Shown here: positions 29,635-62,238 of the stretch, piece after piece | How positions within the stretch are numbered: position 1 is the stretch's first letter | How the letters are laid out: the number at the start of each line of letters is the position of its first letter | Source of the DNA: Bacteroidales bacterium | GTDB taxonomy: Bacteria; Bacteroidota; Bacteroidia; Bacteroidales; VadinHA17 | Direction: 5' to 3' | Assembly: GCA_034522515.1 (NCBI GenBank) | Contig: JAXHLF010000029.1 | Span: 7,809 to 71,808, forward strand | Length of the DNA: 64,000 bases | The notes under the pieces: generated by a model | Databases searched by the model: none | What the model was told of the DNA's origin: nothing | What the model saw: only the letters and a program-made list of their open reading frames with translations | Position numbers and translations under genes: made by a program

Positions 29635-29649
29635 TGAAAAAAATATATC

Positions 29650-40230: not shown

Positions 40231-40602
40231 CAGATCATATTAAGCATTCTCAAAGAAATACCCGGAGACATCTTCCGATCACCCAGATGCATGGCGGCAT
40301 GTGTACAGGGTCAAATTTATGTCAGAATAAATCCGCATTCAAATTTATTTATCAACGGTATCCCAATATTTAAACTCCTAAGGGGTATAAATTGTTTGAT
40401 CAACACACCTTTTTCTGCCATACTTAATGCTCTGCGCGCATTGGATTCCCCGAACACCGAAGGTCTTTAACAACCAACTGATCAACGATGCTTTTTAATG
40501 TCTTGCATATTCAATCTATTTCCAGGTGACAACGCTGATAATGAAGCAACAAAAGAGGGAAGTGCCGGGCCGGCGGTGAGGATGTCCACAACCTGCCGGC
40601 CT

Positions 40603-40718
40603 CCGCCGGCAGCTGCGTATATGTCCATGCACGTCAACGCCGATGCGTACGGCATCCGCCAGCAGCTGCGTATATGCCCATGCACGTTGACGCCGATGCG
40701 TACCGGCATCCGCCGGCG
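40603..40718. repeat. ~54-bp tandem repeat x2.2 just upstream of the sensor-kinase start
   Basis: ccgcc(g/a)gcagctgcgtatatg(t/c)ccatgcacgt(c/t)(a/g)acgccgatgcgtac(c)ggcat is repeated at 40603-40655 and 40656-40709, with a partial third unit. Confidence 0.85.
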
Positions 40719-40727: not shown

Positions 40728-43603
40728 ATGGCAAAGCATATCATCCCCGCATTGTTTCTTTCGTGTTGCTCATGCTTGCAGCCCTGTCCGCCAGCCTGAC
40801 TTCGCCTGCCCAGACCTACCCTTACCGTGAGTACACCATCGATGACGGCTTGCCACAGTCGGAATCGATGGCCTTCTTCCAGGACAGCCGGGGGTTATCT
40901 GGGTCCGCACCCCGCAACGGCCTGGCGCGTTTTGACGGGCAAACCTTTATCCCTTACCTGCGCAAGGACGGTCTGCCTTCAAACATAGTGACACGCGTGA
41001 TTGAGGACCGCGCCGGTACCATCTGGGCAGTTACTTCAAACGGACTTGCCAGGTTCAACGGGAGGAATTTTAAAAGCTACCCGGTGCCCGACTCTCTCAG
41101 AATAAAAAACATGGGCTTTGGTTGCGATCTGGGCGACACGGCAACCTTCCTGCTCTCCGGCTCCTTTGAAACAGAACAGCGACAAGATCCTGCTGTTCAG
41201 GAAAGGCAAATACTATGATTTTGCATTATGGCAGCCGGTCCTTTCCGGAAAAGCACTTGCTCCCGCAGCCTTTGACACCCGGGACTCCGCACTCTATCTT
41301 TTAAGCACCGGATTCAGGAGGTTTACAAGCTTCTTAATGAAACACTTACCCTTATTCATGAAGGGCCGGTGACAAAAGTTACGATTACTGAGGATGGTCC
41401 TCTGTTTATTAATGAAGCTTATGAAAATGAAGTCAGGTACTGCAATGCTTGAGACGGGGGCAGGCGGCTTAATCCCGGACATCACAGACAGAGAGGGCAC
41501 CTCCTGGGTTAGAACAGAGAGCCGTATCTTCAGGCTGATATCCGATGCATTCATTGAATATGACAGGGAGAACGGCCTGCCTGAAAACACATGGGCGCTC
41601 GCAGCTGACCCGTCAGGCGGACTCTGGACAGGCTCAATCAACGGTGAACTTAAATATTTCAACGGCCATCAATTCATCGAAAGAAATGAATACCTCCGGC
41701 TCTATGATTCTCCTCCGGCTTTCTATCGCGGCAGCACAACCCTCTCCAACGGCGAGGTTTGGTTCTCAACAAATGTAGGAGTGCTTATCTGGGACGGGAA
41801 GAGCTTCAGAAAGCTTGACCTGCTTCCGGAACCTCTCCAGATCTGCATCATCTATGAGGATCCGGTCAACGGGAAGATACTCATCGGCTCAGATAAGGGC
41901 CTCTTTATCATCAAAGAGGGCATGAAGGTGACACACTACCCGCAGATGTCGTGGCTTGACTACGGAATCCCCGAAGGCATTGTGCGCGACCACGACGGCA
42001 ACTACTGGATCGCCGGGCACTAGGGCATTGTTTACTTTGACGGCAAGGATTTCGTACCCTTCCGTTCCGCTCCTGCGCCGGTAGAGATGGTTTGGGAGTG
42101 GTATGTGATTATATGGGTAACATCTGGAGCGCAGGATCAGACGGATTATTCATCTGCGACCCGGACGAACCGGTATTCTATAAAGGCACTGCCTAATGAA
42201 ATCAACCTCCCCGCCAACGTCATACGTGACCTGGGAGACAAAAGGCTCCTCACTGGCCGGATGACGGATATCTGCATCATTGACCTTGAGAAATATTACT
42301 CCGGGCAGCCCGACTATTATTCAATCATCGGCCGCAGCAGGGGATTCACGGGCAACGACTGCCAGGACAACGGCATTGCCAGGGATGCCGGCGGAAAATG
42401 GTGGATCCTTTCCTCGGACAAACTCATCCGTTTTGATCCCGAAAAAATAGTCAAAAACGAGTACCCGCCGATGAGCCATCTTACGCTCGTTGAGTTCCCC
42501 GGTGACACCTCAGACTGGGTTACGGCCATTGACAGCTCCCTCTATTATGAAAAGGAGGAGCAAGCTGACCACATCCAGGGAAGGCAGAACAGCATCAGGA
42601 TAAGCTATACCGGCATCTCAACCAGAAACCCCGAGGATGTGACTTTCAGGTACCGGATGAAAGGCCTCGGCGATACCTGGTCAAAGAGAACCAAAGAGCG
42701 TTCGGGTGCTCTACACCGACCTCCCTCCCGGCAAATACATCTTTGAAGTAAGTGCCATCAATGCCGACGGCGTGGCCTCGGAGGAGCCCGACACGCTTGA
42801 GTATCAATGTTGTTCCCACATTCCTGCAGTCGCTCTTTGCCCGTATAATGTTGACTCGTTGCTGGCACTGGCCCTCGTTATTTTTCTCTCGATGCAGATC
42901 CGCAGGAGCGTTCTTGAACGAAAGATCGAAACCTGCCCGGCAGCAGGCTGAGAGCTACCGGCTGCAGCTGAATTCAGTGATAAAGCAGTTTGACCCGCAC
43001 TTCACCTTCAATGCCGTCACCTCAGTGGGCTCACTCATCATGAAAGGGGAAAAGGAGAAGGCCTACAACTATTTCATCAAGCTCTCAAACCTCCTTCGCT
43101 CCATCATCTCTGACAGTACTGTCCTGCTCAAGCCCCTGGAGCAGGAGCTGGAGTTTGTGACACGTTACTGCGAACTGCAGAAGCTCCGCTTCGGCAGCCG
43201 GTTTGATTACACCATCACCGTGAGGGAAGATGTAGATATTAAGGCCCCCGTACCCAAGATGATCATCCAGTCGTTCGCTGAAAACGCCATCGAGCACGGT
43301 CTCGAAAACAAAGAAGGGGCAAGGGATCATGGAGGTAATTGTAGCCAGCAGGGAAGAGGGTATAGATCTTATAGTGAGTGATAACGGCATTGGAAGAGCT
43401 GCCGCCTCAGAGCTGCAGACAGGGGGGGCCGGCACCGGACTGAAAAATATAGCCAGCATAATTGAGACAATGAACAGGGCCAACAAGAGAAGATCACCTT
43501 TGCGCTTAAGGATCTGTACAATAACGGAAAAGCAGCCGGAACAGAGGTGAAGGTGTTCCTTCCGCATAACTATTCCCTGGATTTCCCGTATGACAGCATA
43601 TAA
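40728..43603 (+). pseudogene. Sensor kinase: signal peptide + two-component-regulator propeller repeats + Y_Y_Y + LytS/YehU-type His_kinase/HATPase, many frame breaks
   Basis: The ATG at 40728 (MAKHIIPALFLS) joins 40763.. (LLMLAALSASLTSPAQ). Pieces are 40763..41218, 41394..42023 and 42087..42746 (propeller-like GL..N.V repeats), 42706..42951 (Y_Y_Y-like) and 42752..43381 (FDPHFTFNAVTSVGSLI...LEFVTRYCELQKLRFGSRF). The end is ...GTEVKVFLPHNYSLDFPYDSI* at ~43603. Confidence 0.75.
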
Positions 43604-43629
43604 GCTGAAGGACATAAAAAGATCACCAT

Positions 43630-44393
43630 ATGAATGACCGGAAAATCAGGACGATGATCGTTGAAGATGAGCAGGAGGCCCTCGAACTGCTGGCAGCATT
43701 GCTGGATGGCCACAGGCCTTGCCACAGTCGTAGCATCAACTTCCGATCCCTACGAAGCAGTTGACCTCCTCAACAGCCATGATCCTGACATGCTTTTCCT
43801 GGACATCCGGATGCCGGGGATGTCGGGATTTGATATCCTGAACGAACTGCGCCGGCTGAACACGGCGAGTCCTCATGTGGTTTTCACCACGGCCCACGAC
43901 GAGTATGCGATAAAGGCTTTTGACTATGCCGCCTTCGATTACCTGCTCAAGCCCATTGATCCGGACCGTCTTCTGGAGACCCTTCAGCGGTTCAGGCACT
44001 AACGAGCAAAAAGGTGAAGCCGAGCGTTCAGAGGCCCTTTTTGGCAATGAAAGGATACTTATCTTCAGGGGTGTTACAGGGGTGATATTCATTGACCCGG
44101 ACGATGTTATGTTCATCACCGCCGACGGGAATTACTCCAATTTTAATTTCGACTCCGGGAGAGATTGAGACGGGTGACAGCCCTCTCGGGTCCGTTGAGC
44201 CACACCTGGGAAAGCTGTTCTTCAGAACAGGGCGGGTCATGCATCGTCAACACCACATACCTTGCACGCATTGACCTGAAGCAGATGCAGTGCGTATTCA
44301 TCAGGGAGGACAAGGAATTCAGCTGCGAGATCTCGCGTAGACAAGGTGAAGCAGCTCATGGATCACATGAAAAGACGCATCACGGAAATCTAA
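43630..44393 (+). pseudogene. LytTR-family response regulator, frame breaks
   Basis: The ATG at 43630 gives MNDRKIRTMIVEDEQEALELL. ORF 43661..44002 carries the receiver domain (DMLFLDIRMPGMSGFDIL...FDYLLKPID). LytTR pieces are at 43920..44168 and 44165..44446, and a shifted frame ends ...QVKQLMDHMKRRITEI* at 44393. Confidence 0.75.
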
Positions 44394-44670
44394 ATATTAA
44401 AGTCATCAGCCAGTGTACACCTCAATACAGTCCTTCCGTACATTAGATGCACCCTTTCATACAATGGAGTCATCAAATTCCTTTGAGTTGCAATTTATTT
44501 GTGCAATATTTGGGCCAACAAGACTTTTATAAGAAGGCAGAAAAGGGTTTTAAGTAGAAGGAATTGACAGGTGGTTCTTCCCCCATTTTCCTGTCAGGCC
44601 ACACAGATCAACGATGCCCAACGCATCAATTTGAGGTCTGTGTGGCGGCGTTTTAGAGGGTACCGGTTAT

Positions 44671-44870
44671 TCCCCTCTCCCCCCCCCCCAGATTTTTCCC
44701 CCTCTCCTCTCCCCCAGATTTTTCCCCCCCTCTTTACCCCCCAAAGCTACCCCCTCTTCCTCGCCCCCAGATTCCCCCCCCTCCACCACCCACAGCTATT
44801 TCCCCTCTTCCCCCACTATTTCCCCTCTTCATCCCCAACTATTTTCTCTCTTCTCCCCCATTTCGATCTT
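44671..44870. repeat. C/T-rich (minus-strand polypurine) degenerate tandem array, ~8-9 units of 19-27 bp
   Basis: Units resemble cccccagatttttccccctctcctct / cccccagatttttccccccctcttta / ccccactatttcccctcttcat.... The array lies at or just past the 3' end of fucosidase 1. Confidence 0.75.
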
Positions 44871-46300
44871 CATCACCCAGACATGGTCCGAGGGCGGGTT
44901 CTTTCTCACCTGATGCGGCACTGTCACACGGTAAATGAGTCTCTTCCGTTTTGCCAGCTGCACTTTGTTCCGGAACCCAGCACCGAGACCCTTGATCCTG
45001 CCGGAAGAGTCAGTCCCCTCATCGTCGCCGAGGAAGGCATTTTCTCACCCTCGCCGGCCATATAGAAAAGATACATCACCTCATCTCCCTTGCTGTTGAT
45101 ACACACCTTGCCATCTTTGTAGGGGGCCATGGCCCTGGTGCCGTATATCGCTTCGCCGTTGATCTTTCATCCACTTTCCCATCTCATTGAGCAGTGTGTA
45201 TGCCCCTTCAGGCCATGTTCCGTCAGGTGCCGGGCCTATGTTCAGAAGAAGGTTTCCGCCCTTGACAACTATATCTACCAGCAGTTGAACAGCCTCCCGT
45301 CCTGACATGAACTTAGGGTCAGGCACCCAGGCCCATCCGCCGCCGGCAATAATGCACGACTCCCACGGGATATGGCAGCGCCTCTGACGGCACCCTGTTC
45401 TCAGGGGTGAGATAATTCTGATTCTTTCCATAAACTGCACGGTCAACCACTATCATCCCGGGTTGCTTTTCCCTCACTTTCGCAACCAGCTCATCCATCC
45501 GTATATCCTGGCTCTGTGTGCGTACAAACCTGTGGGGAGGGAGACATAAGATACTCCCTCTCCTCCTCCTGGCTCATCTTCCGCACCCATCCGCCCGTCA
45601 AGCCAGAGGATATCTACCTTGCCGTAATCGCCGCCGGCGAGCTCCATGATCTGACCATGGGTGAACTCCACGAATTTTTCCCACCGCTCGGGATAATTTA
45701 TTGATATTGTCGTTCACATTGCGGTCGGGGGTGGCGAAGTTGGGCCACCAGTAGTTTTCGTTGTGCCAGTCGGGCTTGGAGAAATATGCCCCTGTCCAGA
45801 AGCCCTGCTCCCTGAAGGCGCCAAACACCTCCTTCGTCACGTTCGCCCGAGGGGTTTACGCTGAAGGGACACCCCGGGTCAGTGATCTTATAGTCAGTGA
45901 GCCTTGTGTCAAACATCGAAAAGCCGTCGTGGTGCTTGGTGGTGAAAACAACATACTTCATCCCGGCGTTCTTTGCCGCGGCGGCCCACTTTTCAGGATT
46001 GAACCCGACGGGGTTAAAGCTCATTTTAAGAGCTTCGTACTGCTTCTTGTACTCCATATAATCAGGATTTTTCCTCCGGCACCAGTCCTCATCCTCGGCG
46101 CAGATCGACCATGATTCTACAATTCCCCACTGGCTGTAGGGGCCCCAGTGCATCAGCAGCCCGAATTTCAGATCCTGCCACTGTTCCAGCTTCTGCAGGA
46201 CAAGTGGGTCTGTCTCGGGAACATATCTCTCATCATGCTCCTGGGCCGACAGAGGGGGCATGAGGCCCGCTATAAGCAGCATTATTAAATATCTTTTCAT
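44829..46300 (-). pseudogene. GH29 alpha-L-fucosidase 1, several frame breaks; 3' end approximate
   Basis: Pieces are 45698..46300 (signal MKRYLIMLLIAGLMPPLSAQ; FGLLMHWGPYSQWG; TKHHDGFSMFDT), 45598..45840, 45474..45671, 45081..45446 (GGNLLLNIGPAPDGTWPE) and 44924..45130. Confidence 0.8.
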
Positions 46301-46393
46301 ATCGCAAGGTATTTACTGAATACGATCTGATTCCTGGGTGAAGAAATCTGACCCGGATATCGTCCTGGTTTTGTCTGTGGTTGTGCTCTTTCT

Positions 46394-47821
46394 TTAGCTC
46401 GTCGTCCCGGGGCGACTGGTTATTCCGTTTTCAGCTTCCCGTCGAGGGAGAGGCCTATGACTGTCATCTTCTTCATCAAGCACCTCTTCGGGCACCTTTA
46501 TGAAGTAGACTCCGGCATGGCTGCTCCACCATGGCCTGAGATATTCCTTCGCCTCCAGGGTGGTGCCATTACCTACCACGAAGGCCTTGTTTATCCTGTT
46601 CTTTACTCCCTCGAGCATCAGCTCACCTGCGCCGTCACCGGCGAAAAAGAGAGATACTGTTGTGCTGTAAGGACTCATGGTTGAGGGACCCGCGAAGTGT
46701 CCGTCTGGCAGTCCTGCCCGGGTGCCGTATATCGCCTGGCTGTGCTTTGTGGTCCAGCGGCCCAGCTCCTTCAGCACCTCAGCCTGCTCGTCGGGTATGG
46801 TGCCGTCAGCCTTTGGCCCGATGTAGAGCAACAGGTTGCCGCCCATGCCGATGCACTCGGCAAAGATGCGTATCACCTGCGCCGGGCTCTTGTAATTCCT
46901 GTCGTTGCCCTGGTAGCCCCATGAATCATTGATGGTCATGCAGAGCTCCCAGTGCTTATCCTGCGGCCTCCTTGTCGGCAGTCCCTGTTCAGGAGTGGCA
47001 TAATCGCCGTAGCCTGCCAGCCGCGAGTTGATTATTGCCGAGGGATTATAATCAAGTATCATCCTGCGTATCTCCGGTGCCCTCCATTGTGCGGCGCCCT
47101 GTTCCCAGTCGCCGTCAAACCAGTAGAGGTCAGGACGGAACTCAGTGCCAAGCTCGGTTATCTGTCCGTGGTTGAACTTGACAAAACGCTCCCAGCGCAG
47201 TGAATCGGCCGTATAGCGTTTAACACTCTTCGTCATGTTTGGATAGTCGGGATGTGACCAGTCGAGCAGCGAATAATAGAGCCCCACCTTCAGTCCCGCC
47301 TCCCTCAGCGCCTTCACGAACGGTTTTACCAGGTCACGGCCGGCGGGCGTTGTGTCAGCCACATTGAGACGGCTCAGCTCTGTATCCCACAGGGCCACCC
47401 CGTCATGGTGCTTTGATGTCAGCACGGCATAGCGTGCCCCGCTCTCCTTTATCAGTCCCGACCATCCCTCCGGGTCATAATCAGACGCGGTGAAACCCTG
47501 AAGCTGTTTCATATAGTCGTCATAGCTGATCAGCTCATTGAAGAATGACCACGATTCGTCAATGCCGTTTACCGCATATATACCCCAGTGGATGAATATC
47601 CCCAGCTTCGCATCTGCAAACCACTTCATGCGTTGGGCATCCGTCATCTGAGAAGCCTCCCGCGACACTGCATTATCCTGTCCCTGACCGGTCCCCCTCT
47701 CCCGCCTCCGCCTCCCTCTCCTATCTCCCCCCCCCCTCTCCCCTCTCCCAGCCTCACCAGCCTGGCCGGCTGACGTCATTAAAAAAAAAAATAGCAGAAC
47801 GGCCGTCATGAGCCGCCGCAA
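46394..47821 (-). CDS. GH29 alpha-L-fucosidase 2 (intact ORF; G/R/E-rich insert after the signal peptide)
   Basis: 475-aa ORF with a TTG at 47821 or an ATG at 47809. LGIFIHWGIYAV, SKHHDGVALWDT, GGNLLLYIGPKADGTIPDE. Confidence 0.85.
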   Translation of the reverse strand: MRRLMTAVLLFFFLMTSAGQAGEAGRGERGGGDRRGRRRRERGTGQGQDNAVSREASQMTDAQRMKWFADAKLGIFIHWGIYAVNGIDESWSFFNELISYDDYMKQLQGFTASDYDPEGWSGLIKESGARYAVLTSKHHDGVALWDTELSRLNVADTTPAGRDLVKPFVKALREAGLKVGLYYSLLDWSHPDYPNMTKSVKRYTADSLRWERFVKFNHGQITELGTEFRPDLYWFDGDWEQGAAQWRAPEIRRMILDYNPSAIINSRLAGYGDYATPEQGLPTRRPQDKHWELCMTINDSWGYQGNDRNYKSPAQVIRIFAECIGMGGNLLLYIGPKADGTIPDEQAEVLKELGRWTTKHSQAIYGTRAGLPDGHFAGPSTMSPYSTTVSLFFAGDGAGELMLEGVKNRINKAFVVGNGTTLEAKEYLRPWWSSHAGVYFIKVPEEVLDEEDDSHRPLPRREAENGITSRPGTTS

Positions 47822-47875
47822 AATTTTCTGTCACCAGCGTTCATTGTTTTTTTCTTCTGTAAAATTTATGAAAAG

Positions 47876-49010
47876 TCAAATCCGGAAATATAGGCCGGGG
47901 ACTCGGTAGAATTTATCCGTCTCCCCGGCAGCAAAGCCTGTGAACAGAGCATATACCAGTCCGGGTTTTGCGTTCAGCATCCTGTTCAGCGCACCCATCC
48001 GCCTGTTTGTCCTCAGAGTATCGTATAGACTGGAGTGATCATCAAGCCATGTGAGAGCGGTGTGGTAGCCCTCCTTCGCGCAGACCGCCTCGAACAGGTC
48101 GGGGAGAAGATCTTCGCTGCCCTTGCGGCAGTATATGGCATTAAGAATGATATACCTGAACTCTTCGGGCCTGAACAGCCTCCTGAACATGGGTGTGCGG
48201 GGCAGCACCTTCATCATCAGCCACCCCCCCACTCCGGGCACATTGACCACCCTGTACTGTGCCGGTATGGCTCTAACGCCTGCGACGATCTCCCCGTTTT
48301 TCCGAAGAACATAATACTTATGATCGTAAAACGAAAACTCATCCGTATAAAAGCAATAATCGCGATACTGTTCTTCAAGGAGGCGTGCCATTGCAGGCTC
48401 CTCCTCCGGCTTCAGGCGTGCGACAGAGGGATCAGGCTTCGGGTTGAACCTGCTGAAGGCTACAGTAAGGAATGAGCGTATATATTCGTATCCCGACTGG
48501 TTTACCATGTTCCTGGAACGCTCATTCTGGCTCTCAACATATGCATACATGACATGCGGCGTATCCTTCTCATATTCCTCTCCTGTAGCATGTTGCGGAT
48601 CCCTTATCAAAGAGAGGATCTTCTGCTTAAAGCTGTCTCCGGCCTGTGAGAGTTTCTCTCTCCTGCTGTCCGGAGTCCTCCCGGTCTGAAAGGCGCTCTG
48701 AATGGCAAGATAACGCAGATAGGAAGAGTCCACTGTGCCTCACTCCCCTGTTCAGTGTACTGCGCCGGCACACGCCGATTACTCCCTTCAGGCTGCTCTT
48801 CTTGTAGAGGGCCATGAAGGTGAGTCCGTCACCATAGGACTTAATCCTCTCCTCAGTGTTCAGCATGGAGTAGCGCATCCCGCCCTCGGACCCGAGAACA
48901 GTTTCCTTAAGCAGGGAAACTATCTCCTCGTCGGGTTTCCTGACCCTTCTTACCTCCAGTTTCTTATAGTCGATTATGTTTTTCCTGCTCCATAGTCTCC
49001 TGCGGTTCAT
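47876..49010 (-). CDS. Hypothetical protein (~375 aa, one frame break near ~48700); function unknown
   Basis: ORFs 48627..49010 ([23 protein letters not shown]...) and 47876..48733. The start ATG (49010) overlaps the ispD stop as ATGA. Confidence 0.6.
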
Positions 49011-49995
49011 TGTTTGAGCATCCTGACCAGCGTGTGTGCCACGGCCAGGTCCTCAGGTGTGGTTATCTTAATGTTCTCCCTGTTGCCGTGTGTGAGGTGT
49101 ATCTTCACTCCGGCTGCCTCCGCCACGGTGGCGTCATCAGTGAATGAGGGATCGAAGGGGCGGTCATATGCATTCATTATCAGGCTGCTCAGGAACACCT
49201 GCGGGTGTCTGTATCAGTCTGACCTCATTCCTCGGCAGCGGCCTGCTCTCATCACCTTCAATGATCCTGACCGAATCAGAAGGCTCGATAAATGGTATGG
49301 CCGTGCCAAACTCCTCAGCATCAGCATAGCAACGCCATATTGTGTCATGGCTCACCAGGGGCCTGACGCCGTCATGCACGGCCACCAGCGGTTCTCCGGT
49401 CACATGACCCGGTGGGTCCGCAGGCGACCATGTATCAGCATGCGCAGGCGCCCTGACCTCATCGTGCGCAGGGGCTCTGACCTCATCTTGCTCAGGCAAT
49501 CTTGTGTCCGGTGCCGCCTCGCCTGCCGGCGCCTCGCCTGCCGTCCGCCTCCTTCCCCTCTCTTTTTCTTCTTCCTCTTTCTCCCCTCTCCCTCCCTCTC
49601 TCATGGGGAGCAGGCGCCCATGAAATCACCCCCTCCTCATATCTAGCTGCATCATGCGTCAGGCGCCCTGACCTCATCATGCGCAGCATCCCGGCCCGCC
49701 TGTCTGACCAGCTCCAGTCCTGCCCTGACCGAGTGGAATCTCTCCTCACCGCCGGCAGCCACAGTGTGGCCTATGCCGAATGAGTACTCCTTGACCAGGC
49801 TTCTCCCAGAGTGAATGATGTTCCGAAGGAAGAACAACGATTATCTCAATGGTGCTGTCGAAGGAGTGAAACCGTTCAAGGGTATGCATCAGCAGGAGCT
49901 TCCCCCTCAAGCAGGAGGAACTGCTTGGGGAGGGCCGATTGCATTCTCCGCCCGCTGCCACCGGCAACTATGATGCAATACTTTTTCACTCCCAT
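49007..49995 (-). pseudogene. ispD: 2-C-methyl-D-erythritol 4-phosphate cytidylyltransferase, interrupted by a ~300-bp repeat/polypurine insertion plus frame breaks
   Basis: The ATG at 49995 gives MGVKKYCIIVAGGSGRRMQSALPKQFLLLEG. Further pieces read ...LLLMHTLERFHSFDSTIEIIVVLPSEHHSLW..., ...GHTVAAGGEERFHSVRAGLELV, then [49399-49705 insertion], then ...PLVAVHDGVRPLVSHDTI...LIQTP... and 49007..49198 (...[33 protein letters not shown]). Confidence 0.8.
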
Positions 49996-50140
49996 ATCGA
50001 CTCGAATTAACCGCCAATGATCAACACTTTTACCGCCATATATCACACTTCCCACTCACATATCCCCATCAGCACCTACTTCACTCCCATCTAATACTAC
50101 GCCAAGATCAGCACCTTTTCACTCCGGTATATTAACAGAG

Positions 50141-50163
50141 AGGCCCATAACGGGCCTCTCCAG
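50141..50163. terminator. Strong hairpin just downstream of the acyl-CoA ligase stop
   Basis: gagaggccc-ataac-gggcctctc, a 9-bp GC-rich stem with no clear T-run. Confidence 0.4.
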
Positions 50164-50174
50164 TTCATTCCGAA

Positions 50175-51828
50175 CTATTGCTTCATATAGAGATAACGCT
50201 TGATGCTCTTCTTGGGCGTCTTGGCAAACTCCTCAGGATGGACCCTGAATTTAGTCACTGCCATGTAATCAGGCAGGCGGTTGTTCACATCCTTGCGGAT
50301 CTCATCGAGCGCCGCAGCAAGTCCCTCCTCACCTATGCCGGCAGTCCTGAGAGCCTCATAATCAGGATATACAAGGCCCACTAGCTTATCAGCTTCGGAG
50401 ATGACGATGGCCTCGGTTACATATTTGTGGTTGTTTATCAGCGATTCTATCTCTTCAGGATAGATATTCTTGCCCGAGGCGCCCAGCAGCATATCCTTGC
50501 TTCTTCCCTTGATATAAATATATCCGTCCTTGTCTATGACACCGAGGTCACCCGTATGCATCCAGCCATCCTCGTCAATCACATCCTTCGTAGCCTTCTC
50601 GTTCTTGTAGTAGCCAAGCATTACGTTGTCGCCACGGAGTATGATCTCCCCTACTATCTTTTCCGGGTCAGGCGAGTCTATCTTTACCTCAAGGGTATCA
50701 ACAGCCTTACCGCAGGAGGCGATCCTGGCTGTCTTCCACCCGTCATAGGCTATCAGCGGACCGCATTCGGTCATGCCGTATCCTATGGAGAAGCGCAGTC
50801 CGATCTTTTTGAAGAACTTCTCGGCGTCGGCATTGAATGCGGCCCCGCCGATGACCAGCTCCTTGAAGCGACCGCCGAAGCTGATTTCCAGCTTCTCACG
50901 AATTTTCCCGTAAAAAGAATCTTATTGATCCCCGGGACCTTCAGCATCGCCTTCATTGCAGGTTTGGAGATGACAGGAACCATTTTCTTCTTGTAAACCT
51001 TCTCTATCACAAGCGGAACAGAGAGGATCAGCCTGGGCCTTATCTCCTGAAAGGCCTGCAGGAGAATCTGCGGTGAGGGAGTCTTGGTGAGTATTGTTAT
51101 ATGACACCCGTAGGTAAAGGGGAAGAGAAACTCAAAAGCACATCCGTAGGTGTGTGCCAGCGGGAGGAAAGAGACGACGGGGTCACCCGGCTCCAGGGGC
51201 ATGTTATTCTGTGCATACCTGATGTTTGCTGCCAGGCTCCTGTGGGGAACCATCACACCTTTTGAGAAACCTGTGGTACCGGAGGTGTAACTGATAACGG
51301 CAAGCTGCTCATTGTCAACTCCGGAGAATTTGATGTCAGCCGGACCAAACTCCGGAAAGGTTTTACGGAAGTGGTCGTCAAGGTTCTTGTATATCTCAGG
51401 GAATTTATCTGACCGGCTCATGATCACTCAAAGGTATCAAGGCTGATGACACCTTCGATCTCTTTGATCTTCTCCGGGTCAAGCAGCTCCCAGATCTTGT
51501 CATCAATGAAAAGCATCTTTGAGTCGGAGTGGTTGATGATGTTGTGAAGGTCATCAGGCTTGAAGTCCGGCAGTATGGGAACAATGCACTGCACCATAGG
51601 TCACCACGGCAAGATACATGGCGCACCAGTTGGCAGAGTTCCTGCCCAGCAGGGCAATTTTATCGCCCTCAACAATTCCATATTCCCGAAAGACAATATG
51701 GTGTTTGACCATTACTTCAGCTATCTCTTTGTAGGTATAGCCCTTTTCACGGTAATTGGAAAGCGCCTCGATTTCCCAGTTCTTTCTTATGCTCTCTCAC
51801 ATAGGTGATAAATCGTTCCTTGATCATG
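50175..51828 (-). pseudogene. AMP-dependent synthetase/ligase (long-chain acyl-CoA ligase-like), frame breaks
   Basis: Pieces are 51405..51626 plus an upstream start MIKERFITYVREHKKE at ~51828, 50783..51427 (AMP-binding motif YTSGTTGFSKGVMVPHRSL) and 50175..50774 (...WMHTGDLGVIDKDGYIYIKGRSKDM...). Confidence 0.8.
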
Positions 51829-51888
51829 ATTTTGGAGTTTTTTCTGTTTTTATGTATAAATATAATCTTTAAAACTGAAGGCGATAAC

Positions 51889-52095
51889 ACTGTAAAGCAA
51901 AAGCACACGTGAAGAGTTGCTGTTCATTCATCAGTCGTATGGCAGGTCACAGCCAGTAAAGCAAAAGCACCGGCTAAGTGTTGTCTCTTAATTCATCAAT
52001 CGCATGGCCGGTCACAGCCCGCAAAGCGAAAGCACCGGCTAAGTGTTGTCTGTTCTTTCATCAATCGCATGGCCGGTCACAGTCTGTAGAGCAAA
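51889..52095. repeat. ~65-bp tandem repeat x3 plus a partial unit that overlaps the 3' end and stop of the membrane-protein gene
   Basis: Units are at 51889-51948, 51949-52013 and 52014-52078 (cacagcc(a/c)g(t/c)aaagc(a/g)aaagcaccggctaagtgttgtct...catcaatcgcatggccggt). The unit start recurs at 52079 (cacagtctgtagagcaaaagcaccg), which is the last ~8 codons plus the stop. Confidence 0.85.
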
Positions 52096-52469
52096 AGCAC
52101 CGTCAGGGCCATGATGAGATTAACCGCCGTAAAGACCATGTTATACCGTACTCTTTTAGCGCTGAAGCGGGTAATCTTTCTCGAGAATATGGCTGCTGTC
52201 GGAACAAACAGCACCACCAGGAATATGAAGAATTCCGGTCCGTCGAACACCTGGCTCACCCCTCCTCCCTGAGGCTGGCGAAATAGATTACGATCAGCAT
52301 CACCATGAGATACGAGGAGATAGCTGCCTTTAAGTGCCAGCGTGGAGAGGGGCCGGGAGTGATGAAGCTTGTGGGGTTTAAGGTAAGCGTATGCTATTGA
52401 GAACACAATCAGCGCGAAGAGGGCCCCGATAATATAACTCATCATCTCCGGAAAATTGTAGTTGCTCAT
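52077..52469 (-). CDS. Small integral membrane protein, unknown function
   Basis: 130-aa intact ORF with about three hydrophobic segments (MMSYIIGALFALIVFSIAYAYL..., FFIFLVVLFVPTAAIF..., VFTAVNLIMALTVLLLY). Confidence 0.55.
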   Translation of the reverse strand: MSNYNFPEMMSYIIGALFALIVFSIAYAYLKPHKLHHSRPLSTLALKGSYLLVSHGDADRNLFRQPQGGGVSQVFDGPEFFIFLVVLFVPTAAIFSRKITRFSAKRVRYNMVFTAVNLIMALTVLLLYRL

Positions 52470-52481
52470 TTACTGTTGCTA

Positions 52482-53460
52482 TTACTTATCCTGATCCAAC
52501 CCTGACCATACCAGTGAGCTTGCCCCGAGCACGGCAGCGTTCTGTGTGCTCAGTTCGGAAGGGAGGAGCTTCACCTTGTCACGGTAGATATGGAGCAGGT
52601 CTTTCTCCATATGCTCCTTTGCCGGCTCAAAGATAAGCTCCTTGGCCAGGGCCAGTCCTCCGAAGAGGAATATCGCCTCGGGATTGGTATGCGCCACCAC
52701 GTCGGCGAGCTTGAATCCCAGCATGGCACCCGTATGTTCAAAAGCCTCAAGGGCTATGGCGTCTCCGCGACGGGCGGCCTCATAGATCTTTTTTGAGTCG
52801 AGCTCCTCGAAGCTGAAGCGTCGCAGCTCGCTGTCATCAAGCTTGTCAGCCATTATCTTCAGCACCGTCCGTTTCAGTCCCGTGGCTGAGACATATGTCT
52901 CGAGGCACCCCTTGCGTCCGCACCCGCAGTCGCGGTTTGACATGCCCGGCCTGATGGAGGTGTGTCCGATCTCGCCTGCAAAACCGTCATGGCCGTAGAC
53001 AAGCTTGCCGTCAACGACAAACCCGCTGCCAAGGCCGGTGCCGAGGGTGATCACAACAAAGTTCTTCATCCCTCTGGCGCCTCCGTAGATCATCTCTCCC
53101 ACGGCGGCAGCGTTGGCGTCATTGGTGACAATAACCGGCAGGGAAGTGTGCCTGCTAAAGATCTCTGCCAGCGGAATTATCCCCTTCCATGGAAGATCGG
53201 CCGGGTACTCTATGGTTCCCTTGTTGATGTTTCCCATGGGGGCGCCGATGCCAAAACCAAGTATCTCAACCTCCCTGCCGATCCTTGTTGACAGTGATCA
53301 TCATCTTTTCATATAGGGCGGCAACAAACACCTCCGGCTCGTCATAGTGGGTTGTGACTATCTGATCCTCAGCCAGAATCTTACCAGCCCTGTCAACAAA
53401 TCCAAAGACAGTATTTGTGCCTCCTATGTCAATGCCGACCACTACCTTTTCCTTATTCAT
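52482..53460 (-). CDS. ROK-family sugar kinase (glucokinase-like) 1, one frame break near ~53250
   Basis: ORFs 53266..53460 (MNKEKVVVGIDIGGTNTVFGFVD) and 52482..53237 (TNDANAAAVGE...GHTSIRPGMSNRDCGCGRKGCLETYVSATG). Confidence 0.85.
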
Positions 53461-53552
53461 TGTAAAAATTAGAGTTAAACTATAAGTAAATATATTGTTT
53501 TGTTCAGACCGGTGAAAACAATGTCTTTCCGGGAAAATGATTTCAGATCTTC

Positions 53553-54576
53553 CTAAGCGGGAACATATTCATTTCCCACTTTCCTTGCCCTTGTCGGATG
53601 GTCAAGATCAATCTTCAGGGCGATACCGGTCTCTACCGAGTATGTTCCACCCTGCGGCAAGCTGAATGTACTCAGCGTACTCTCCTCCATCAGGGATAAC
53701 TATTGTCGGGAAAATGGTCTTTTCCTTAGCTATCGCGATGACATTGACCTCAGCCCCCTTCACGATGCACTCCATGAACTTGTCGTGGTCATGTTCGAAT
53801 GGATCGACCCATATCAGGACCTCATTTTTGTTCATCACCTCCTCTATGCCATGGAGGGCGAAAGTTCCCTCAAGGAAGGCCGACTTCTTCCTGGTGATCT
53901 CATTGGTCTTCAGGGCAAGCTCGGCGGCGACTCCGTTATCGCGTCCCGCAAAGTATATCATGTCGGCATTGCGGACCATGTCAATGATCTTTTTGTCAAT
54001 CCTGGCCGTCAGCACCTCTTCTGCCTGGTCAGCTGCCTTCTTGAGGCCGGTCATCTTCTCACCCGCGGAGATTACGCAGCAGGGAGTCGTAGAAAAGCGC
54101 CTGCTCCACCACCGACTTGGTAGCAGCGACGGCGTTCTCCTTGCCGCATTTCAGCACATGTGCTGCGTCGGCAAATTCCTCCAGCCTGGTGTTCGGGTTG
54201 GCTGTCAGGCCGAATATGGCATTATGCTTCTTCTTTTTCAGGGCGGTCACAAGGCGGATCACCTCTTTTGTCTGACCGGAGTTGGATGCGGCAAACACCA
54301 CGAAGTCGCGGAGATCGGCACTCCAGCGACTGGGTACAGCCCTCCGTCATCACGGGCAGAAGATCAATTCCTTCTTCAGGGACGAAAAGATGGCTCTCTT
54401 TGCCCGGGGAAGACCTTGCTGCTACCCTCACCTGTGAGGAAGAGTCCCTTTTTCGATTTGAAAGCCTTCAGGAAAGGAGCGGAGACTTCAGGTCTGAATG
54501 ACCTTATTATGCCTGGTGTTTCCATCATTTCGCGCACCAGGGCGAACTTGCTGTATTTTTTGTCGGTCAGATTCAT
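53553..54576 (-). pseudogene. SIS-domain sugar-phosphate isomerase/deaminase (AgaS/GlmS-C-like), frame breaks
   Basis: Pieces are 54376..54576 (MNLTDKKYSKFALVREMMETP...LFLTGEGSS), 54059..54301 (VFAASNSGQTKEVI...) and 53608..54054. A shifted C-terminus ends ...VETGIALKIDLDHPTRARKVGNEYVPA* at 53553. Confidence 0.7.
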
Positions 54577-54587
54577 GGACGGGGATG

Positions 54588-55357
54588 TTATTGTTTAACA
54601 ATGAATTCACTCAGGTGGCGCTGTATCTGCGGGTCTTTCTGGAAGCCGCCGCCGAGATGCTGCCAGTATACTTCAGCGTACTCCACTCCTGCTAATTTAC
54701 CATAGTTTTTGTTCCCCTCCAGCACGTAGCCGAAGAAATCGTCTATCCGGTGCATGTGCTTCATCAGCTCAAGCTGCGACAGATGCTTGCCCAGCATCTC
54801 TATCTTGGTGTCAACCACGCTGGTGACATCGACGAGAAAGTGGGGTGGTACGAGCTGTGAGCCGAGCGGGTCGCTCAGTGTCAGTGGTGAAGTATGGTAG
54901 AGAAGAGGTGTCACCTCCAGCGGTTTCTCCGGCACAGGCACCGGGTCAAGCGAGGCTACCATGGCTGCGGCCTCCACGATGGCCGCCGGTGGCCCGGTGG
55001 TCCGGATGGTAGTCGTTTGGCAGGTGTGTAAAGACGATGCCGGCCCTCACCTTTCGCATTAGTGATATTGTCTTCAGCCGCAGCTCCCGCGTGTCGATAG
55101 AGGGAGCCGTTAGTAGCACCCATGGTGTAATATTCGGCATCAAGTACGGCGGCGGCGGCCTTAGCCTCATCATATCTCACCCGCGCCGTCTCCTCCATGC
55201 TCATGTTGCATCCGCCCAGATCGCCTCCGGTCATTGTGGCTATCACAATACGGTATCCCCTGTCATGCAGGAACTTCAGCACCCCCGCGTTCCATGCCTC
55301 AGCATCATCGGGATGAGCGTTGATAGAGAGTGCTACCTTGTTGAATTCCGTTGCCAT
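54588..55357 (-). pseudogene. PIG-L/LmbE-family deacetylase, frame breaks
   Basis: ORF 54956..55357 (MATEFNKVALSINAHPDDAEAWNAG...IATMTGGDLG), with 54946..55173 and 54588..54977 supplying the rest (HPDHRATG...). Confidence 0.7.
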
Positions 55358-55368
55358 ACCTTATCGTT

Positions 55369-56580
55369 TTATTTTAATACCATTATCTTTTTAAGCTTCA
55401 CAAAATCAGGGAGGTCGCCTGTGAGTGGCTTCATATACCTCATGAAGGCGTCAGAGACGAAGTTGCCGGCGGCGTTGAAGTACTCTGCGGGCATGGGTCT
55501 GGCGGCGATGGCCACCTCGCTCAGCGGCACCTTTCCGAATGTCACCTCATAGGGGTCATCGGAGGTCCTGTCTATGCTTACCATGAATCCCGACTCTCCC
55601 CTCTCGGCCAGTCGTACAGCCTCGACTTAGCACCTGTAGGCCTCATCGAGTTCAAGCGGCAGCGACCTGACATAGTCGCTCATTATCAACGACTCCGTTA
55701 TCTGGAAAAACTCACCCCTGACGCCCGACTCCGACGAGATCATGCGGTGGAGTGTCAGCCCTACGCTGGCACCGCCCATGGCACCGAACTCGGTGTTGCT
55801 GAATGTGTCCTTCACCACCGAGGCGCTGACCGGGGAGCCGTCGGCATACCTTATACCCTCGCCGCAGACCACCGAGACCCAGCCGTATCTGGTGATGCAG
55901 TGTTCAACGTCCGCGAGGAACTGTTCCTTCACGAAGTGATGCTCGGGAGCGTATATCAGGTGGGGCGCATCATCCTCGTCACGCCTGGCAACGGCCGTTG
56001 CGGCGGCGAGCCATCCGGCATCACGGCCGATGGTCTGGTAGACAACAAACTGATCGACCTTCTTCATGTCGCGGGCCAGCATTCACCCTGCATCACGTTG
56101 AGAATATTGGACCATGCCGCCGATGCAAATCCCGCGGTGTGGTCAGTGCCAAAGAGGTCATTGTCAACCGTTTTCGGGATGCCGACACCCGTAGAGCTGC
56201 GTAGCCCCTGTCACGGCAATAGGACTCCACCCTGTGGATGGTATCCATCGTGTCATTCCCTCCTATAAGGAAGAAGTACCTCTTATATCATACTTTTCAG
56301 TATGGAAAGGATTCGGGGAAAATCCTCATCCTTGAGCTTGTGGCGTAATTGAGCCGAGGGCCGATGAGGGTGTACGGCGGAGGCACCGTATGATGTCGTC
56401 AGGTTGTGACCAGAGGTCAAAGAGCCACTCGTTCATGAATCCCTCGATGCCGTAGTTCATGCCATAGACACCTGAAATTATTCCCGAGGCCCGGGCGGCG
56501 GTGACCACTCCTGCAAGGCTTGAGTTTATAACTGATGTCGGACCGCCTGACTGGCCGATCACTGCATTGCCCTTCATCAT
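55369..56580 (-). pseudogene. 6-phosphofructokinase family (PPi/ATP-dependent), frame breaks
   Basis: Pieces are 56326..56580 (MMKGNAVIGQSGGPTSVINSSLAGVV), 55627..56082 (...VYQTIGRDAGWLAAATA...VVCGEGI...) and 55369..55584. Confidence 0.75.
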
Positions 56581-56643
56581 ATCTGTGCTATTTGAGAATT
56601 AGGTTTAAGAGTTGCTATTTTTATTTGTGACTGCGTCGCCAAA

Positions 56644-57363
56644 CTATGGATTTACCATGTGGGTTTCTGGTTGTGCCATCCGACTGGCGGAGCGGCGATT
56701 TATGAGCTTAAATGAACTTCCAGATTCCAAATTATTCGGACGGTGATAATCGGGCTTTTCAGTGCCTACCGGTTTCCAGGTCACAATCTGCGGGTTGCTC
56801 AGCTTGTCGCCGCACTTGCAGAATTTGGCCTTGAAGCTCCTGCCGGCCAGGGTGTCAATCTTCTGGCGGAAGAAAGTTTTAAGCGGGATGGCCACTGCCA
56901 GAGACCACCTTATGTCGCCGCTGATCTCTCTGAACAGATTCCCCGCCCATTGTGGTGAGGCGGCGGATGCCATCAACCACAGAGGTCTCTGCTCTTACGC
57001 TGTCATGTCCTTGGTGGCCCCATCCCATCAGCGCCGTGCCTATCGGGTTAAACTCGAAATTATAATAGATGCCGTCATCAGAGGGTGCGACGAAGAACTC
57101 GACGCACCAGTCTTTCGCATACCATCTCGTTGGTGCGGCTATCTCTCCGCCTTGACATCGGCCTTCCTCACGTAATATTTGATATAGATCTCATCGTTGT
57201 CGCCCAGGCAATATTGAACCTCACCTCAGGCTTGTAGGGAATGATTCCCAGTTAACCGTCTCTATAAGATGGCCCTCTCCAAGCTCATCAAGTCTGGCGG
57301 TGACCTCTTCCATGGAGGACTGGTCTTTTCAGTGTTCAGTCTTCTGACCTCTATGGTTCGCAT
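56644..57363 (-). pseudogene. Carbohydrate-binding family 9-like (DOMON-like) protein, frame breaks
   Basis: The ATG at 57363 gives MRTIEVRRLNTEK. Shifted frames read ...ETVNWESFPYKPEV..., ...DWCVEFFVAPSDDGIYYNFEFNPIGTALMGWG..., and ORF 56644..56976 (...FKAKFCKCGDKLSNPQIVTWKPVGTEKPDYHRP). The family call is from memory of CBM9_2-type motifs. Confidence 0.5.
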
Positions 57364-57400
57364 CTCTTCACTTTTAGTTAGTTCCGCTTCGAGAACAATC

Positions 57401-57570
57401 TCAGCTTTGACCCGCATCCTTCCGGATCAGTGCCGTCAATGCCAGTCTGTCTGTCAGCCTCGCGGTTGTCAGCTTTGACCCGCATCCTTCCGGAACAGTG
57501 CCGTCAATGCCAGCCTGTTTGTCAGCCCCGCTGTTGTCAGCTTTGACCCGCATCCTTCCAGATCAGTGCC
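57401..57570. repeat. 68-bp tandem repeat: two downstream copies plus the original that includes the last codons and stop of ROK kinase 2
   Basis: tcagctttgacccgcatccttcc(g/a)ga(t/a)cagtgccg... begins at 57401, 57469 and 57537. The copy at 57537 starts with the gene stop codon. Confidence 0.85.
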
Positions 57571-58495
57571 GAGGCGCCGAGTATCGCTGCGCGCGCTTCC
57601 GGCAGTCCTGACGGCATCACGGTGAATGTACCCCGGAATATTGGCTGAACAAGTTCGTCAGCATATCCTACCGGTTCAAAGACGGCATCACCTGCCTTTG
57701 TCAGTCCTCCGAACAGGAATATTGTTTCCGGGCTGGAGAAGATCACGGCGTTGGCTCTGCCCGAGTGCGATCATACGTGCTGTCTGGTCGAGGGCCTCGA
57801 TTGCGATGATGTCGCCGGCCGCCGCGGCCTCGGCCACTCTTCGCGAGGTTATCTCACTGCTCTTCAGGTCACGCAGTATGCTCTCCTCGCGGAGGTCGCT
57901 GAGCAGGGCGAGGACAGTGCGCACCAGCCCTGTGGCAGAGGCGTAGGTCTCCAGGCATCCGCGGCGGCCGCATCCGCAGATCCTGCCTCCCTCGGCAACG
58001 GTCACGCGACCAAGCTCACCGGCAAAACCGGTATGGCCATACACCACCTCACCGTCAACGACGATCCCGCTGCCGTCCCTATGCCCAGGGCCAGGACTTC
58101 AAAACGCTCTATGCCCTTTGCCGCTCCAAAGATCATCTCACCAAGGGCCGCGGCATTGGCATTGTTGGTTATCCTGGTCTTTAGTCCCGTTCGCCTCTCG
58201 GTCAGCATTACCAGCGGTATTATTCCCTTCCAACGGAGGTTCGGTGCTTACGTCAACGGTTCCCTTGTTGAAGTTGGCGTTGGGGCGCTCCAATGCTGAT
58301 GCCGGTAAGCGTCAGGTCATCATGGCCGGCAATCATCTCCTTCAGCTTAAGGTCAAGGGCTGTGACAAAGTCATCAGCAAAGGCATAATCGGGCGTGGAG
58401 AGCCTTCCCTCGGCATGGATCTCACCATCGCGGTCGACAAAACCGATGATTGTGTTTGTTCCTCCAATGTCTACTCCGGCTACTACTTCTTTCAT
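57537..58495 (-). pseudogene. ROK-family sugar kinase 2, frame breaks
   Basis: Pieces are 58253..58495 (MKEVVAGVDIGGTNTIIGFVD), 58002..58208 (NNANAAALGE), 57688..58047 (GHTGFAGELG...ICGCGRRGCLETYASATG) and 57537..57746. Confidence 0.8.
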
Positions 58496-58510
58496 ATTCT
58501 GCTCTCAGTT

Positions 58511-59907
58511 TAAACTTCTTTCAGCAGTTCTGGCCGGATCCTGTAGGCCTCAGCACCAGCTCCCCGAACAGCGTGTTGGGCCCAGGCAAACCACTTCCTG
58601 GTGTACTTTGTCGGGTCATTCCTTCATGACCAACTCATGCATGAAGCCTGGCTGCATGGGTGTTCCCTAATATCCTAGTGATGATATGATATCGTTATCG
58701 TTACTGGTGGTGAGAGCCCGTATGGCTTAGCTATCGGCCACCGCGGTTAGCCGGTGCTAAAAATTCGTACCCTACCGCTATATCCGGAGAAAGAAAAATT
58801 GCTTCTGCTCATACAAAGCTTCTGTACGGAGAGATAAAGCGGATCACTGCGGTCAATGGTTCCCAGGTAGGGCAGGCCCAGCAGGCTCGGCACGTTGGCA
58901 TCATCCATGAAATTGTAATTGTAGTAGCCGTCGGTCTCATAGGGGATGATCTCCCCGTGCTGCGGATGCAGTGCCCTGGCGTAAGTGGCGAGAGCAGCGT
59001 CAACCTCATCAGCCAGCCCGGCGGCGTCTCTGGCCAGCACCTCATCACGGGTAACGGATGTGGCAATCTCCGCCATCTGCCTGAGCGACTTCACCGCAAA
59101 AACAAACCTTCGAGGGAATGAGGAAAGGCCATATAGTTGCATCATCCGACGCCGGAAGATGGAGACGATCAGTCCGACAGGATCGACCGGGTTGCCAAGC
59201 CGCCGCCGGCTACAGTATCGGTCTGCCATCCTGTTACCCTCTGGAATCCCCCTTTTTTTTTTGGGTGCATGACTCGTCAAACACCGAGGTGTCACCGGTA
59301 GCCTTCCAGTAACCGTGAGCCAGCCTAAAAAAATCCCACAGAGAGTCTATCTCCCACTTGCGCTCATGAAGCTCGGGCTTCATGTCGGTGAGGTCATTCA
59401 TCCACTCTACTCTGTCCGGGACCGTCATTGAAGGCATTGGCATAATGCCCCAGAATGAATGCACTTTACCTGTCTGTTGATGACCCCGGCTATCAGATCC
59501 TTAAGGTTTGTGTTACGGCAGAAAGTGCGGCACAGACGGCCATACCTGTGCGGTGGAATCGCGGAGCCACATGGCGTTGATGTCACCCGTGATGACGAAT
59601 GTGTCGGGCCTGTTATCCCTGACGGAGAAGTTAACGGGTAGTGTCAAGCGTGTTCGGGAAGCAGTTGCCAAAGAGCCATGCCAGTTGGCTGTCGCCGACA
59701 GATGACTCTATCTCCCTGATGGTCTCCTCCATCACCTTGCTGCGGAACCTGCGCAACCTGGGCGCGGGGCCTGTTGGAAGTCCACCTGGCTGCCCTGCCT
59801 GTTGAGAATGCCGGAAAAGCCGCGGATGCCGGGAATGCATTAACGCCGGCAGAGATGGCGGCACCTGCCACCGCGGTGTTTCTGATGAACCTGCGACGCG
59901 TTGACAT
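58511..59907 (-). pseudogene. GH125-family (DUF1237) exo-alpha-1,6-mannosidase-like protein with Tat-type signal, frame breaks
   Basis: 59644..59907 (MSTRRRFIRNTAVAGAAISAGVNAF...) and 59631..59864 (...LAWLFGNCFPNTLDTT). Further pieces are 59234..59464 and 58747..59295 (...IIPYETDGYYNYNFMDDANVPSLLGLPYLG...). A shifted C-terminus ends ...NTLFGELVL...ELLKEV* at 58511. Confidence 0.65.
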
Positions 59908-59951
59908 CGGATTATCTCTTTATTGCCGGTTTATTCCTGATTGAAACATCC

Positions 59952-61719
59952 TTACTGTACATTAACCCAGATCCCAGTCCTGGTTCCAGCGCCCCAGTTG
60001 ATCTTCACCTCCAGCTCGCCGGGAAAACACGAAACAGGCTCGGGGATTTCTGAGAAGGCTGAAGTCGCCTGTCGTCCCATACCATATCTTGAGTCGAGGT
60101 CATAGATCGCCTTAAGCCTGTAGCGTCCTTTGTCAAGAAGCGGGAAGGTGATATCGCCGGGGCTCCTGACATATTCCTCCCTGACGACCTTTTCCTTTTC
60201 GGCAAGCAGCTGCACGATTACATTTCCCGCATAGCCCGACAGTTTTGCCCTGATACTTCCGTAATCTTCTTCGGTGGCGACGGCAAACCTGTAATTCGTT
60301 GAATCGGTTACATTTCCATAGATATCCCTGAAGGAGCCTCCCATACAGACGAGGGAATATGTACCGCCGGGTATCAGCGGAGCCTTCATCATCAAATTTC
60401 TGCAGTGGTGCTGTCACTGATAAATTCAAAGTTCAACTCCGTTCTGACCGTATCGATGGTCTGAATGAGCGTTATAAGTGAAGTGTCAGGGTCAGCCAGC
60501 GGAACTGCTGACCTGAAGTATGGTTCAGCTCCGGGTCTTATCTTTCCGATAAGATTTGTGGTCAGCGTCAGCGCCGGGGCTCTGCCGGCACCTCCCCGCG
60601 GAGTAGCAGGCTTTGTATACCGGAGGTTGAGCGTGTCGGTTCTGGCAATGACGGTGCCGGTGCTGTCAGTGAAGGGATAGGTAAGCAAAGCCTCTATCAG
60701 ATCACGTCCGTAAACCTCAGGGTCGGTGATCCAGATCATGAAGGTGTCACGGGCGGCATTGTTTTCCATGTACCATGATTGCGGCGGAGGATCGGTAAAA
60801 GAATTGAAACCTAACCTGTGTCTGTTGGCAGCGCCAGCCCGAAGCCCACTGACCAGGCGCTCCTCCTGTCGTAGAACCCGAGGTACTGCTTCCATGGCTC
60901 CTGCTGGAAGGCATATAACCCAATTGATGCCGAAAAGGAAGATATTCGGTTTGGTTGTCTCAGTGGCAGTGGCAGGTTTATACTTTATCGAGTTAGGCAC
61001 GACGGAACAGTATCTCCTCCGGGGTGATATGGATGAGCGAATCACAGAAGGCAAATATCTCGTCATCAATATCGTACAGTCTGTTCCCGTTAAGGTCCTG
61101 AACTGCAAAGAGCCTGTAATGGCCGGGCTTAATGTTGTTTATCATGAAACCGCCTGACGGGTCGGGACGCGAAATATAAGCCGGAAGGAGTTTACGCGGT
61201 GCGGTATCAGAGAGGTTGGAATACATCATGACCATGACATCTTCCACTGTCTCCAGGCTGGCGGCGTCGTAAACACATTGCCCGTAAGAGAGAGGAAGTC
61301 GAGCACGGTACCGGTAGAAAAGACATACTGGTAGTTCGGAATGGGATTGTTCTCGTCATTGTCGCGTATGGCGTCCTGAAAGTAAAAGGTGTAGGTGGTG
61401 CGGTCTGCCAGCTCCTCATCCCATGTCACCAGCAGGCTTTTTCCCTTTAGTCTGATATTCCGTTTTGTCGCCAGGGGAGGCGATACCATGAACTTCTCGG
61501 TTATCCGGTCAAGCACGACGAACTCGTCAAATGTGATTGCGAACTCGATTATCCGTAAGAAGGACTGTACCATTCTCCGGCTGGCTCTTAAGGCTTACCC
61601 GGAGGGTCGGTGTCTTTAGGTCCGCCTGATGGCGAGCTTATCTTGGGGCATGACAATATAAACAGCATGATCAAGGCCGTTGCGCCCAGCCTGCCTGATA
61701 TGTAACTCCCGCGATCCAC
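59952..61719 (-). pseudogene. Ig-like (Big_5-type) domain lipoprotein, frame breaks
   Basis: The GTG at 61719 is inferred from the better-preserved mirror copy (...RLGATALIMLFILSCAK). Pieces are 61226..61573 (FAITFDEFVVLDRITEKFMVSPPL...YTFYFQDAIRDN), 60993..61247, 60392..61108 and 59952..60395. Confidence 0.65.
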
Positions 61720-61818
61720 CGCTTACAAACTTACATCAAATTTTGTTAAGTAAATAAGATGGGCGGCATGCGCAACCGATACTTTATACCGGATAAGTTT
61801 TCCTGTCACTTTTTTATT

Positions 61819-61826
61819 TAATTTTG
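61819..61826 (+). promoter_or_regulatory. -7 promoter box TAATTTTG upstream of lgt
   Basis: Matches TAnnTTTG; 20 nt upstream of the ATG at 61846. Confidence 0.4.
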
Positions 61827-61845
61827 TGTTCCATACACAATACCT

Positions 61846-62235: not shown

Positions 62236-62238
62236 AAA

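Follow-up and report, generated by a model that had tools for sequence, protein, structure and literature searches.

Long inserts are known in the IspD of Plasmodium, and lineage-specific low-complexity loop insertions occur in housekeeping enzymes. Canonical bacterial IspD, as represented by the enzymes of E. coli (PDB code 1I52) and B. subtilis (PDB code 5DDT), matches the Pfam family PF01128 over the whole protein and is marked by conserved AGGxGxRM, KQF, HDGxRP and TDD motifs. Both features are shared by the gene described here. On the technical side, ligation libraries are known to yield inverted-repeat chimeric reads (PMC13141652).

The window, by which we mean the whole 64,000-nucleotide stretch of Bacteroidales DNA that was analysed, carries an ispD gene on its minus strand which, as written, has no uninterrupted reading frame. 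The original prediction described it as split by an insertion of about 300 bp, made of direct repeats around a polypurine core. It is very likely that the gene as written combines a real, repeat-built linker of IspD with nanopore artefacts superimposed on it in this copy. The features of the gene and of its linker are as follows.

49007-49995, minus strand: ispD as written, with five frame changes and one in-frame TGA (Pfam match to both halves; open reading frame fragments)
49392-49705, minus strand: linker, from the helix ending ...RAGLELV to the strand PLVAVHDGVRP (alignment with the intact protein P0001 and homologues)
49441-49497, minus strand: tandem 24-nt coding repeats (APAHDEVR units), 2.4 copies (TRF; in frame in P0001)
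49660-49686, minus strand: third copy of the 24-nt unit (AAHDEVRAP), 96% identical to the reference copy and present in P0001

The assignment to IspD was borne out by Pfam matches to both halves of the gene: the N-terminal piece matches PF01128 profile positions 3-102 (E 1.4e-16) and the C-terminal piece positions 93-220 (E 2.3e-23), and together the two window pieces cover the profile across the whole domain. The stops said to lie in the segment are also there, as a TGA at 49652-49654 accompanied by two frame changes within the linker. IspD was further thought to read normally outside the insert, which is not the case: the frame shifts at three further points, near 49910, 49800 and 49205, at each of which the window has a single-base insertion not shared by the syntenic related loci L036 and L001. 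A promoter and terminator scan of 48.9-50.3 kb returned nothing above chance.

All three motif copies noticed in ispD were found, one exact (49442-49463), one with two mismatches (49466-49487) and one with three (49657-49678), where none is expected by chance; the motif had been taken as 22 nt long, and the true unit according to TRF is 24 nt. The end of the linker, placed at 49399 in the original prediction, is at 49392, with PLVAV beginning at 49391.

A search with the conceptual IspD product against 5.8 billion proteins returned as its best match P0001 (MDZ7636164.1), an intact 288-residue IspD which has an uninterrupted reading frame and carries the HDEVRAP units in frame. Its linker is 195 nt (65 aa) long, as against about 314 nt in the window, and about 195 of these ~314 nt are real lineage-specific linker. 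The idea of a tolerated in-frame insertion blurred by indels thus holds for roughly two thirds of the segment. One repeat unit is unlike between the two copies of the gene (AHADTWSP vs AHDEARAP).

The same search matched thousands of IspD proteins of uncultured Bacteroidales, many of them 240-298 residues long vs about 225. Their surplus length always falls at one point in the alignment, between ...RAGLxxV and ...LVAxHDGVRP: 52 of 110 close homologues have 10-61 extra linker residues at this exact site, and the other 58 have fewer than 10. Across the 110 homologues the linkers are unrelated in sequence and of low complexity, with much G, A, E, D and P and, in many cases, internal repeats. The nearest homologues have HDE(A/V)R-type repeats in common, and related repeats of the HDE type are present in P0002-P0006. 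The long-linker homologues were drawn from NCBI, JGI, ENA and Logan assemblies. The site is similarly unstable in independent assemblies, among them a locus with a 66-residue IspD linker (L043), one in which a tandem duplication of the linker extends into the conserved strand (L004) and an Illumina scaffold with a gap exactly in the linker (L046). A JGI metagenome scan with the linker peptide found no relative. In the nanopore MAG MFD00905.bin.1.61 (L036:10001-10800), a one-base deletion frameshifts ispD just after its own, shorter linker.

These orthologues speak to two other accounts of the segment. The first is that the whole stretch of ~300 nt, repeats too, is an assembly artefact and that the true loop is short as in E. 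coli IspD. The contig is demonstrably of poor quality, but the IspD of the second copy has the repeats in frame, and long linkers occupy this site in dozens of independent assemblies, Illumina ones among them; we regard this account as extremely unlikely. The second account holds that a small mobile element of MITE type, with direct repeats on either side of a core, inserted recently and disrupted the gene. It takes its appeal from the fact that the repeats flank a compositionally distinct core. However, the flanking repeats are in-frame coding units, found also in P0001 and, as HDE-type repeats, in related IspDs, and orthologues in relatives carry a long linker at the very site of the supposed insertion, an outcome that the original prediction itself had named as counting against it. 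The signs expected of a MITE were looked for and not found: there are no terminal inverted repeats or target-site duplication (the best inverted arms are 12-13 nt, internal and away from the ends), no further copies in the 64 kb, where the 22-nt motif occurs in ispD only, no comparable purine-rich tract in 864 kb of relatives apart from one borderline case, and no empty site in orthologues. The junction between native sequence and purine-rich core was likewise unmatched in a JGI metagenome scan. A mobile element can be practically dismissed.

In the B. subtilis structure (5ddt) no residues correspond to the linker, which is in its entirety an insertion relative to that enzyme. In the AlphaFold model of P0001, which is of moderate quality overall (mean pLDDT 62.6), pLDDT is below 50 for residues 112-158 and averages 31-45 over residues 111-160, a low stretch that falls between the helix of residues 85-108 and the strand of residues 163-168. 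The linker is accordingly modelled, and here predicted, as a disordered segment between conserved elements. It is a genuine but ordinary feature: a hypervariable, low-complexity surface loop of a Rikenellaceae-like lineage. In the organism it would comprise about 65 residues, encoded by 24-nt tandem units (APAHDEVR and variants) that are read in frame. Such a linker could grow and change through replication slippage and unequal exchange between units, and would presumably be tolerated because it is disordered and distant from the catalytic motifs. It shows how far a loop can drift in an essential housekeeping enzyme of an uncultured Bacteroidales lineage.

The remaining third of the segment is best understood from the contig itself. 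The contig to which the window belongs is a nanopore fold-back with two mirror copies of one locus: it is self-reverse-complementary about an axis, and a sequencing adapter lies at that axis.

60514-64000, no strand assigned: visible part of the inverted duplication (self reverse complement, 95.2% identity over 3495 nt)
62238-62286, plus strand: fold-back axis, the end of the ONT ligation adapter (AGCAATACGTAACTGAACGAA) followed by part of the start adapter (CAGTTACGTATT..GCT) (sequence match)

The first arm runs to about 62257 and the second begins at 62258. With the ONT adapter sequences as quoted in the Porechop_ABI preprint, the adapter end sequence matches at 21 of 21 positions (62238-62258), where no such match is expected. 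Fourteen of 20 translations of window open reading frames are exactly proteins MDZ7636062-MDZ7636149 of one 105,495-bp MAG contig, in an order that follows the window coordinates. P0001 (MDZ7636164) and a fucosidase, P0266 (MDZ7636166), are encoded on this same contig, beyond the window and in reverse gene order; the protein accessions (159, 164, 166) indicate that genes beyond the window keep to the mirrored order. Some 43 kb at the end of the deposited 105-kb MAG contig is a duplicate of earlier sequence.

The window arm carries a much heavier load of errors than its counterparts. We compared 18.7 kb of the window (41480-60150) with the syntenic relatives L036 and L001, which are about 86% identical to it, and counted 83 window-private one-base indels, namely 56 insertions (41 of them beside an identical base) and 27 deletions, vs 6-7 private one-base indels in each of the related MAGs. 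In the stretch where both arms are visible, six surplus single bases were counted in arm 1 and one in arm 2, and a 401-residue open reading frame that arm 2 preserves in full is broken into three pieces in arm 1. The accession numbers point to about 33 annotated protein fragments in arm 1, vs about 17 for the same ~16 kb of arm 2. Nearly every gene in the 41-62 kb region is broken, including those for an acyl-CoA ligase, a glmS-like protein, pfk, lgt and a second fucosidase. Far less damage is seen before about 41 kb, where DnaG is intact, as is IleRS over 2.8 kb; since long genes elsewhere are intact, the density of errors must be uneven. Genome-wide pseudogenisation in a reduced symbiont was considered and rejected in view of the adapter, the mirror copy with its intact genes and the homopolymer-type nature of the indels.

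Besides single-base changes, the window arm contains longer blocks of its own.

49506-49599, minus strand: 94-nt block without counterpart in P0001, in which ...WAPAPHE and TRLPEQ... are uninterrupted
49624-49650, minus strand: G/A-rich block of ~25 nt (containing AGATATGAGGAGGGGGTGA), not in P0001 (protein alignment)
49998-50130, minus strand: 133-nt insertion directly upstream of the ispD start, window-only, not in L036 or L001
47691-47758, minus strand: purine-rich tract encoding GRGERGGGDRRGRRRRERGT, in the N-terminal linker of an alpha-L-fucosidase (composition; comparison with P0266)
44670-44860, minus strand: 189-nt G/A-rich insertion at the 3' end of another, frameshifted fucosidase (precise insertion relative to L036 and L001)

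The C/T-rich core described in the original prediction exists as such: within 49532-49607 the pyrimidine content of 40-nt windows is 90% or more, and the core reads EGGRGEKEEEEKERGRRR on the gene strand. The 94-nt block with which it overlaps consists of a purine-rich core (~49549-49599) and a G+C-rich 15-nt tandem (49515-49543), and its length is of the form 3n+1, which therefore changes the frame. Across this site P0001 reads ...WAPAPHE followed directly by TRLPEQDEVRAP..., and the block was found in no IspD of the 5.8-billion-protein search. It is a probable read artefact. The smaller linker block was delimited (49624-49650) by protein alignment rather than by DNA of the second arm. Next to it are an in-frame TGA (49652-49654) and, near 49659, an extra A. 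Judged from the annotated protein P0001, the second arm should lack both the 94-nt and the ~25-nt block.

Outside the linker, the 133-nt insertion consists of four degenerate copies of the native ispD start region; when its units were scored against the native 48 nt, the observed score was reached by 2-14 of 500 shuffles per unit. In the alpha-L-fucosidase, the block encoding GRGERGGGDRRGRRRRERGT is 60 nt (20 aa) long, at a site that follows the signal peptide, and it is also missing in relatives. The fucosidase P0266 of the second arm reads AGQAGEASGQGQD, without the GRGERGGGDRRGRRRRERGT segment, and has a normal C-terminus, so that the second arm, as far as this annotated protein indicates, would lack the 60-nt block as well. 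The 189-nt insertion is made of about eight degenerate units of 21-27 nt, the first two of which resemble the adjoining native sequence. There are thus five private insertions in the window arm, four of them G/A-rich and one a run of degenerate neighbour copies. Those of the two fucosidases lie on the same strand as ispD and within 5 kb of it, and neither is present in relatives. Purine-rich tracts occur at three loci in the window vs one borderline tract in the 864 kb of the 53 related loci obtained by genome scan, none of them from this species; counted with both linker blocks and the stutter run, the three loci amount to five blocks.

Units within the insertion arrays are only ~70-80% alike, while the arms are 95% identical. 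As arrays this young would be expected to have more similar units, read stutter fits better than real duplication, and we infer that the blocks arose by stutter. The lengths of three of the four G/A-rich blocks are divisible by three or nearly so (189, 60 and about 24 nt; chance about 0.1), which is weakly suggestive of real coding insertions. We nevertheless consider it very unlikely that the G/A-rich blocks are real, that is, recent, purine-biased and roughly in-frame expansions gained by the strain through error-prone, strand-specific slippage or template switching. On that reading, the several expansions would lie on one strand within 5 kb, at permissive coding sites (the IspD loop, the fucosidase linker after the signal peptide and a C-terminal tail). 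Taken over all such scenarios, a real, strain-specific origin of the blocks has a small probability.

The differences between the arms allow a further reading. Here the inverted duplication would be genuine, or a second strain would be present, and the window ispD would be a decaying pseudogene with real purine-rich expansions, the intact copy being the functional one. That an intact second ispD exists would suit this, as would the lengths of the 189- and 60-nt blocks, which are multiples of three. The arm differences are moreover dominated by substitutions (73 vs 8 indels in 1.7 kb) and partially enriched in synonymous changes (25 of 63, vs about a quarter expected from random error, an intermediate value in the codon-position test); because they are substitution-heavy and synonymous-enriched, the arms may partly represent two strains, and some strain variation may be mixed into the differences seen in the sequence. 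Yet a sequencing adapter sits precisely at the axis, the arms being separated by only about 15 nt, and nearly all genes at 41-62 kb are broken in the same manner, by homopolymer-type single-base indels. The low similarity of units in supposedly young insertions does not suit a pseudogene either, given arms that are 95% identical, and the blocks are found in no relatives (neither L036 nor L001 has them, and the 53 loci hold the single borderline tract). We judge this reading unlikely.

The stops, frameshifts and purine-rich core of the window ispD are most likely nanopore sequencing and assembly errors. An assembly or basecalling artefact was among the options first put forward; it applies to these features, which belong to the poor fold-back arm only, and fails for the repeat linker. 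A template-complement read that had not been split, and that still carried its adapters, was built into the assembly, and this chimeric read placed the same locus in the contig twice, as mirror copies. The window arm would have retained the read errors. These are single-base indels, for the most part extended homopolymers, together with junk insertions that are G/A-rich or resemble stutter, and they would account for the core, the stop and the frameshifts in ispD. If read errors were retained in the window arm in this way, ispD is almost certainly intact in the organism. The repeat-rich IspD loop seems to be error-prone in long-read assemblies generally.

Several other tandem arrays were seen in the window. 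A 7/14-nt unit (GGATAAAGGTTAAA) forms near-identical arrays of 5-11 copies at two intergenic sites that lie far apart, 3070-3149 and 35225-35297. Short intergenic arrays are found at 17848-17921, 21437-21472, 7729-7828 and 15925-15986, their types being GAGGGTCG x9, AAAGTCAG x4.6, runs of GTCGGCA and ATTTGCG, and a perfect 12-nt unit x5.2. Longer tandem repeats of 46-68 nt, with 2-3 copies each, are located at 51892-52102, 57401-57571, 40596-40714 and 29543-29635; a 60-nt part of the repeat at 51892-52102 is window-only in comparison with L036 and L001.

Two practical points follow for users of these data. The deposited MAG contig contains an adapter-bearing fold-back, one arm of which is full of frameshifts and junk insertions, and this should be flagged as a matter of quality. 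Apparent gene disruptions and odd repeats at ~41-62 kb of the window are not to be trusted as they stand.

The two components of the locus each have a known counterpart. As in nanopore template-complement chimeric reads, there is an inverted self-copy at the contig end, with adapter end and start sequences at the junction, and the quality of one arm falls far below that of the other. Unlike plain chimeric reads, this one is fixed in a deposited MAG contig, where it has been annotated as genes, and it is known from the assembly alone. The linker, for its part, resembles loop inserts of the Plasmodium type in being in frame, disordered and fast-evolving and in lying between conserved secondary-structure elements, with the catalytic motifs kept. 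It differs from the Plasmodium IspD inserts in its bacterial host, an environmental member of the Bacteroidales near Rikenellaceae, in being much shorter (0-61 residues), in varying in length between close relatives and in being built here of 8-residue units. Whereas solved IspD enzymes have essentially no residues at this site, the present lineage has up to 61.
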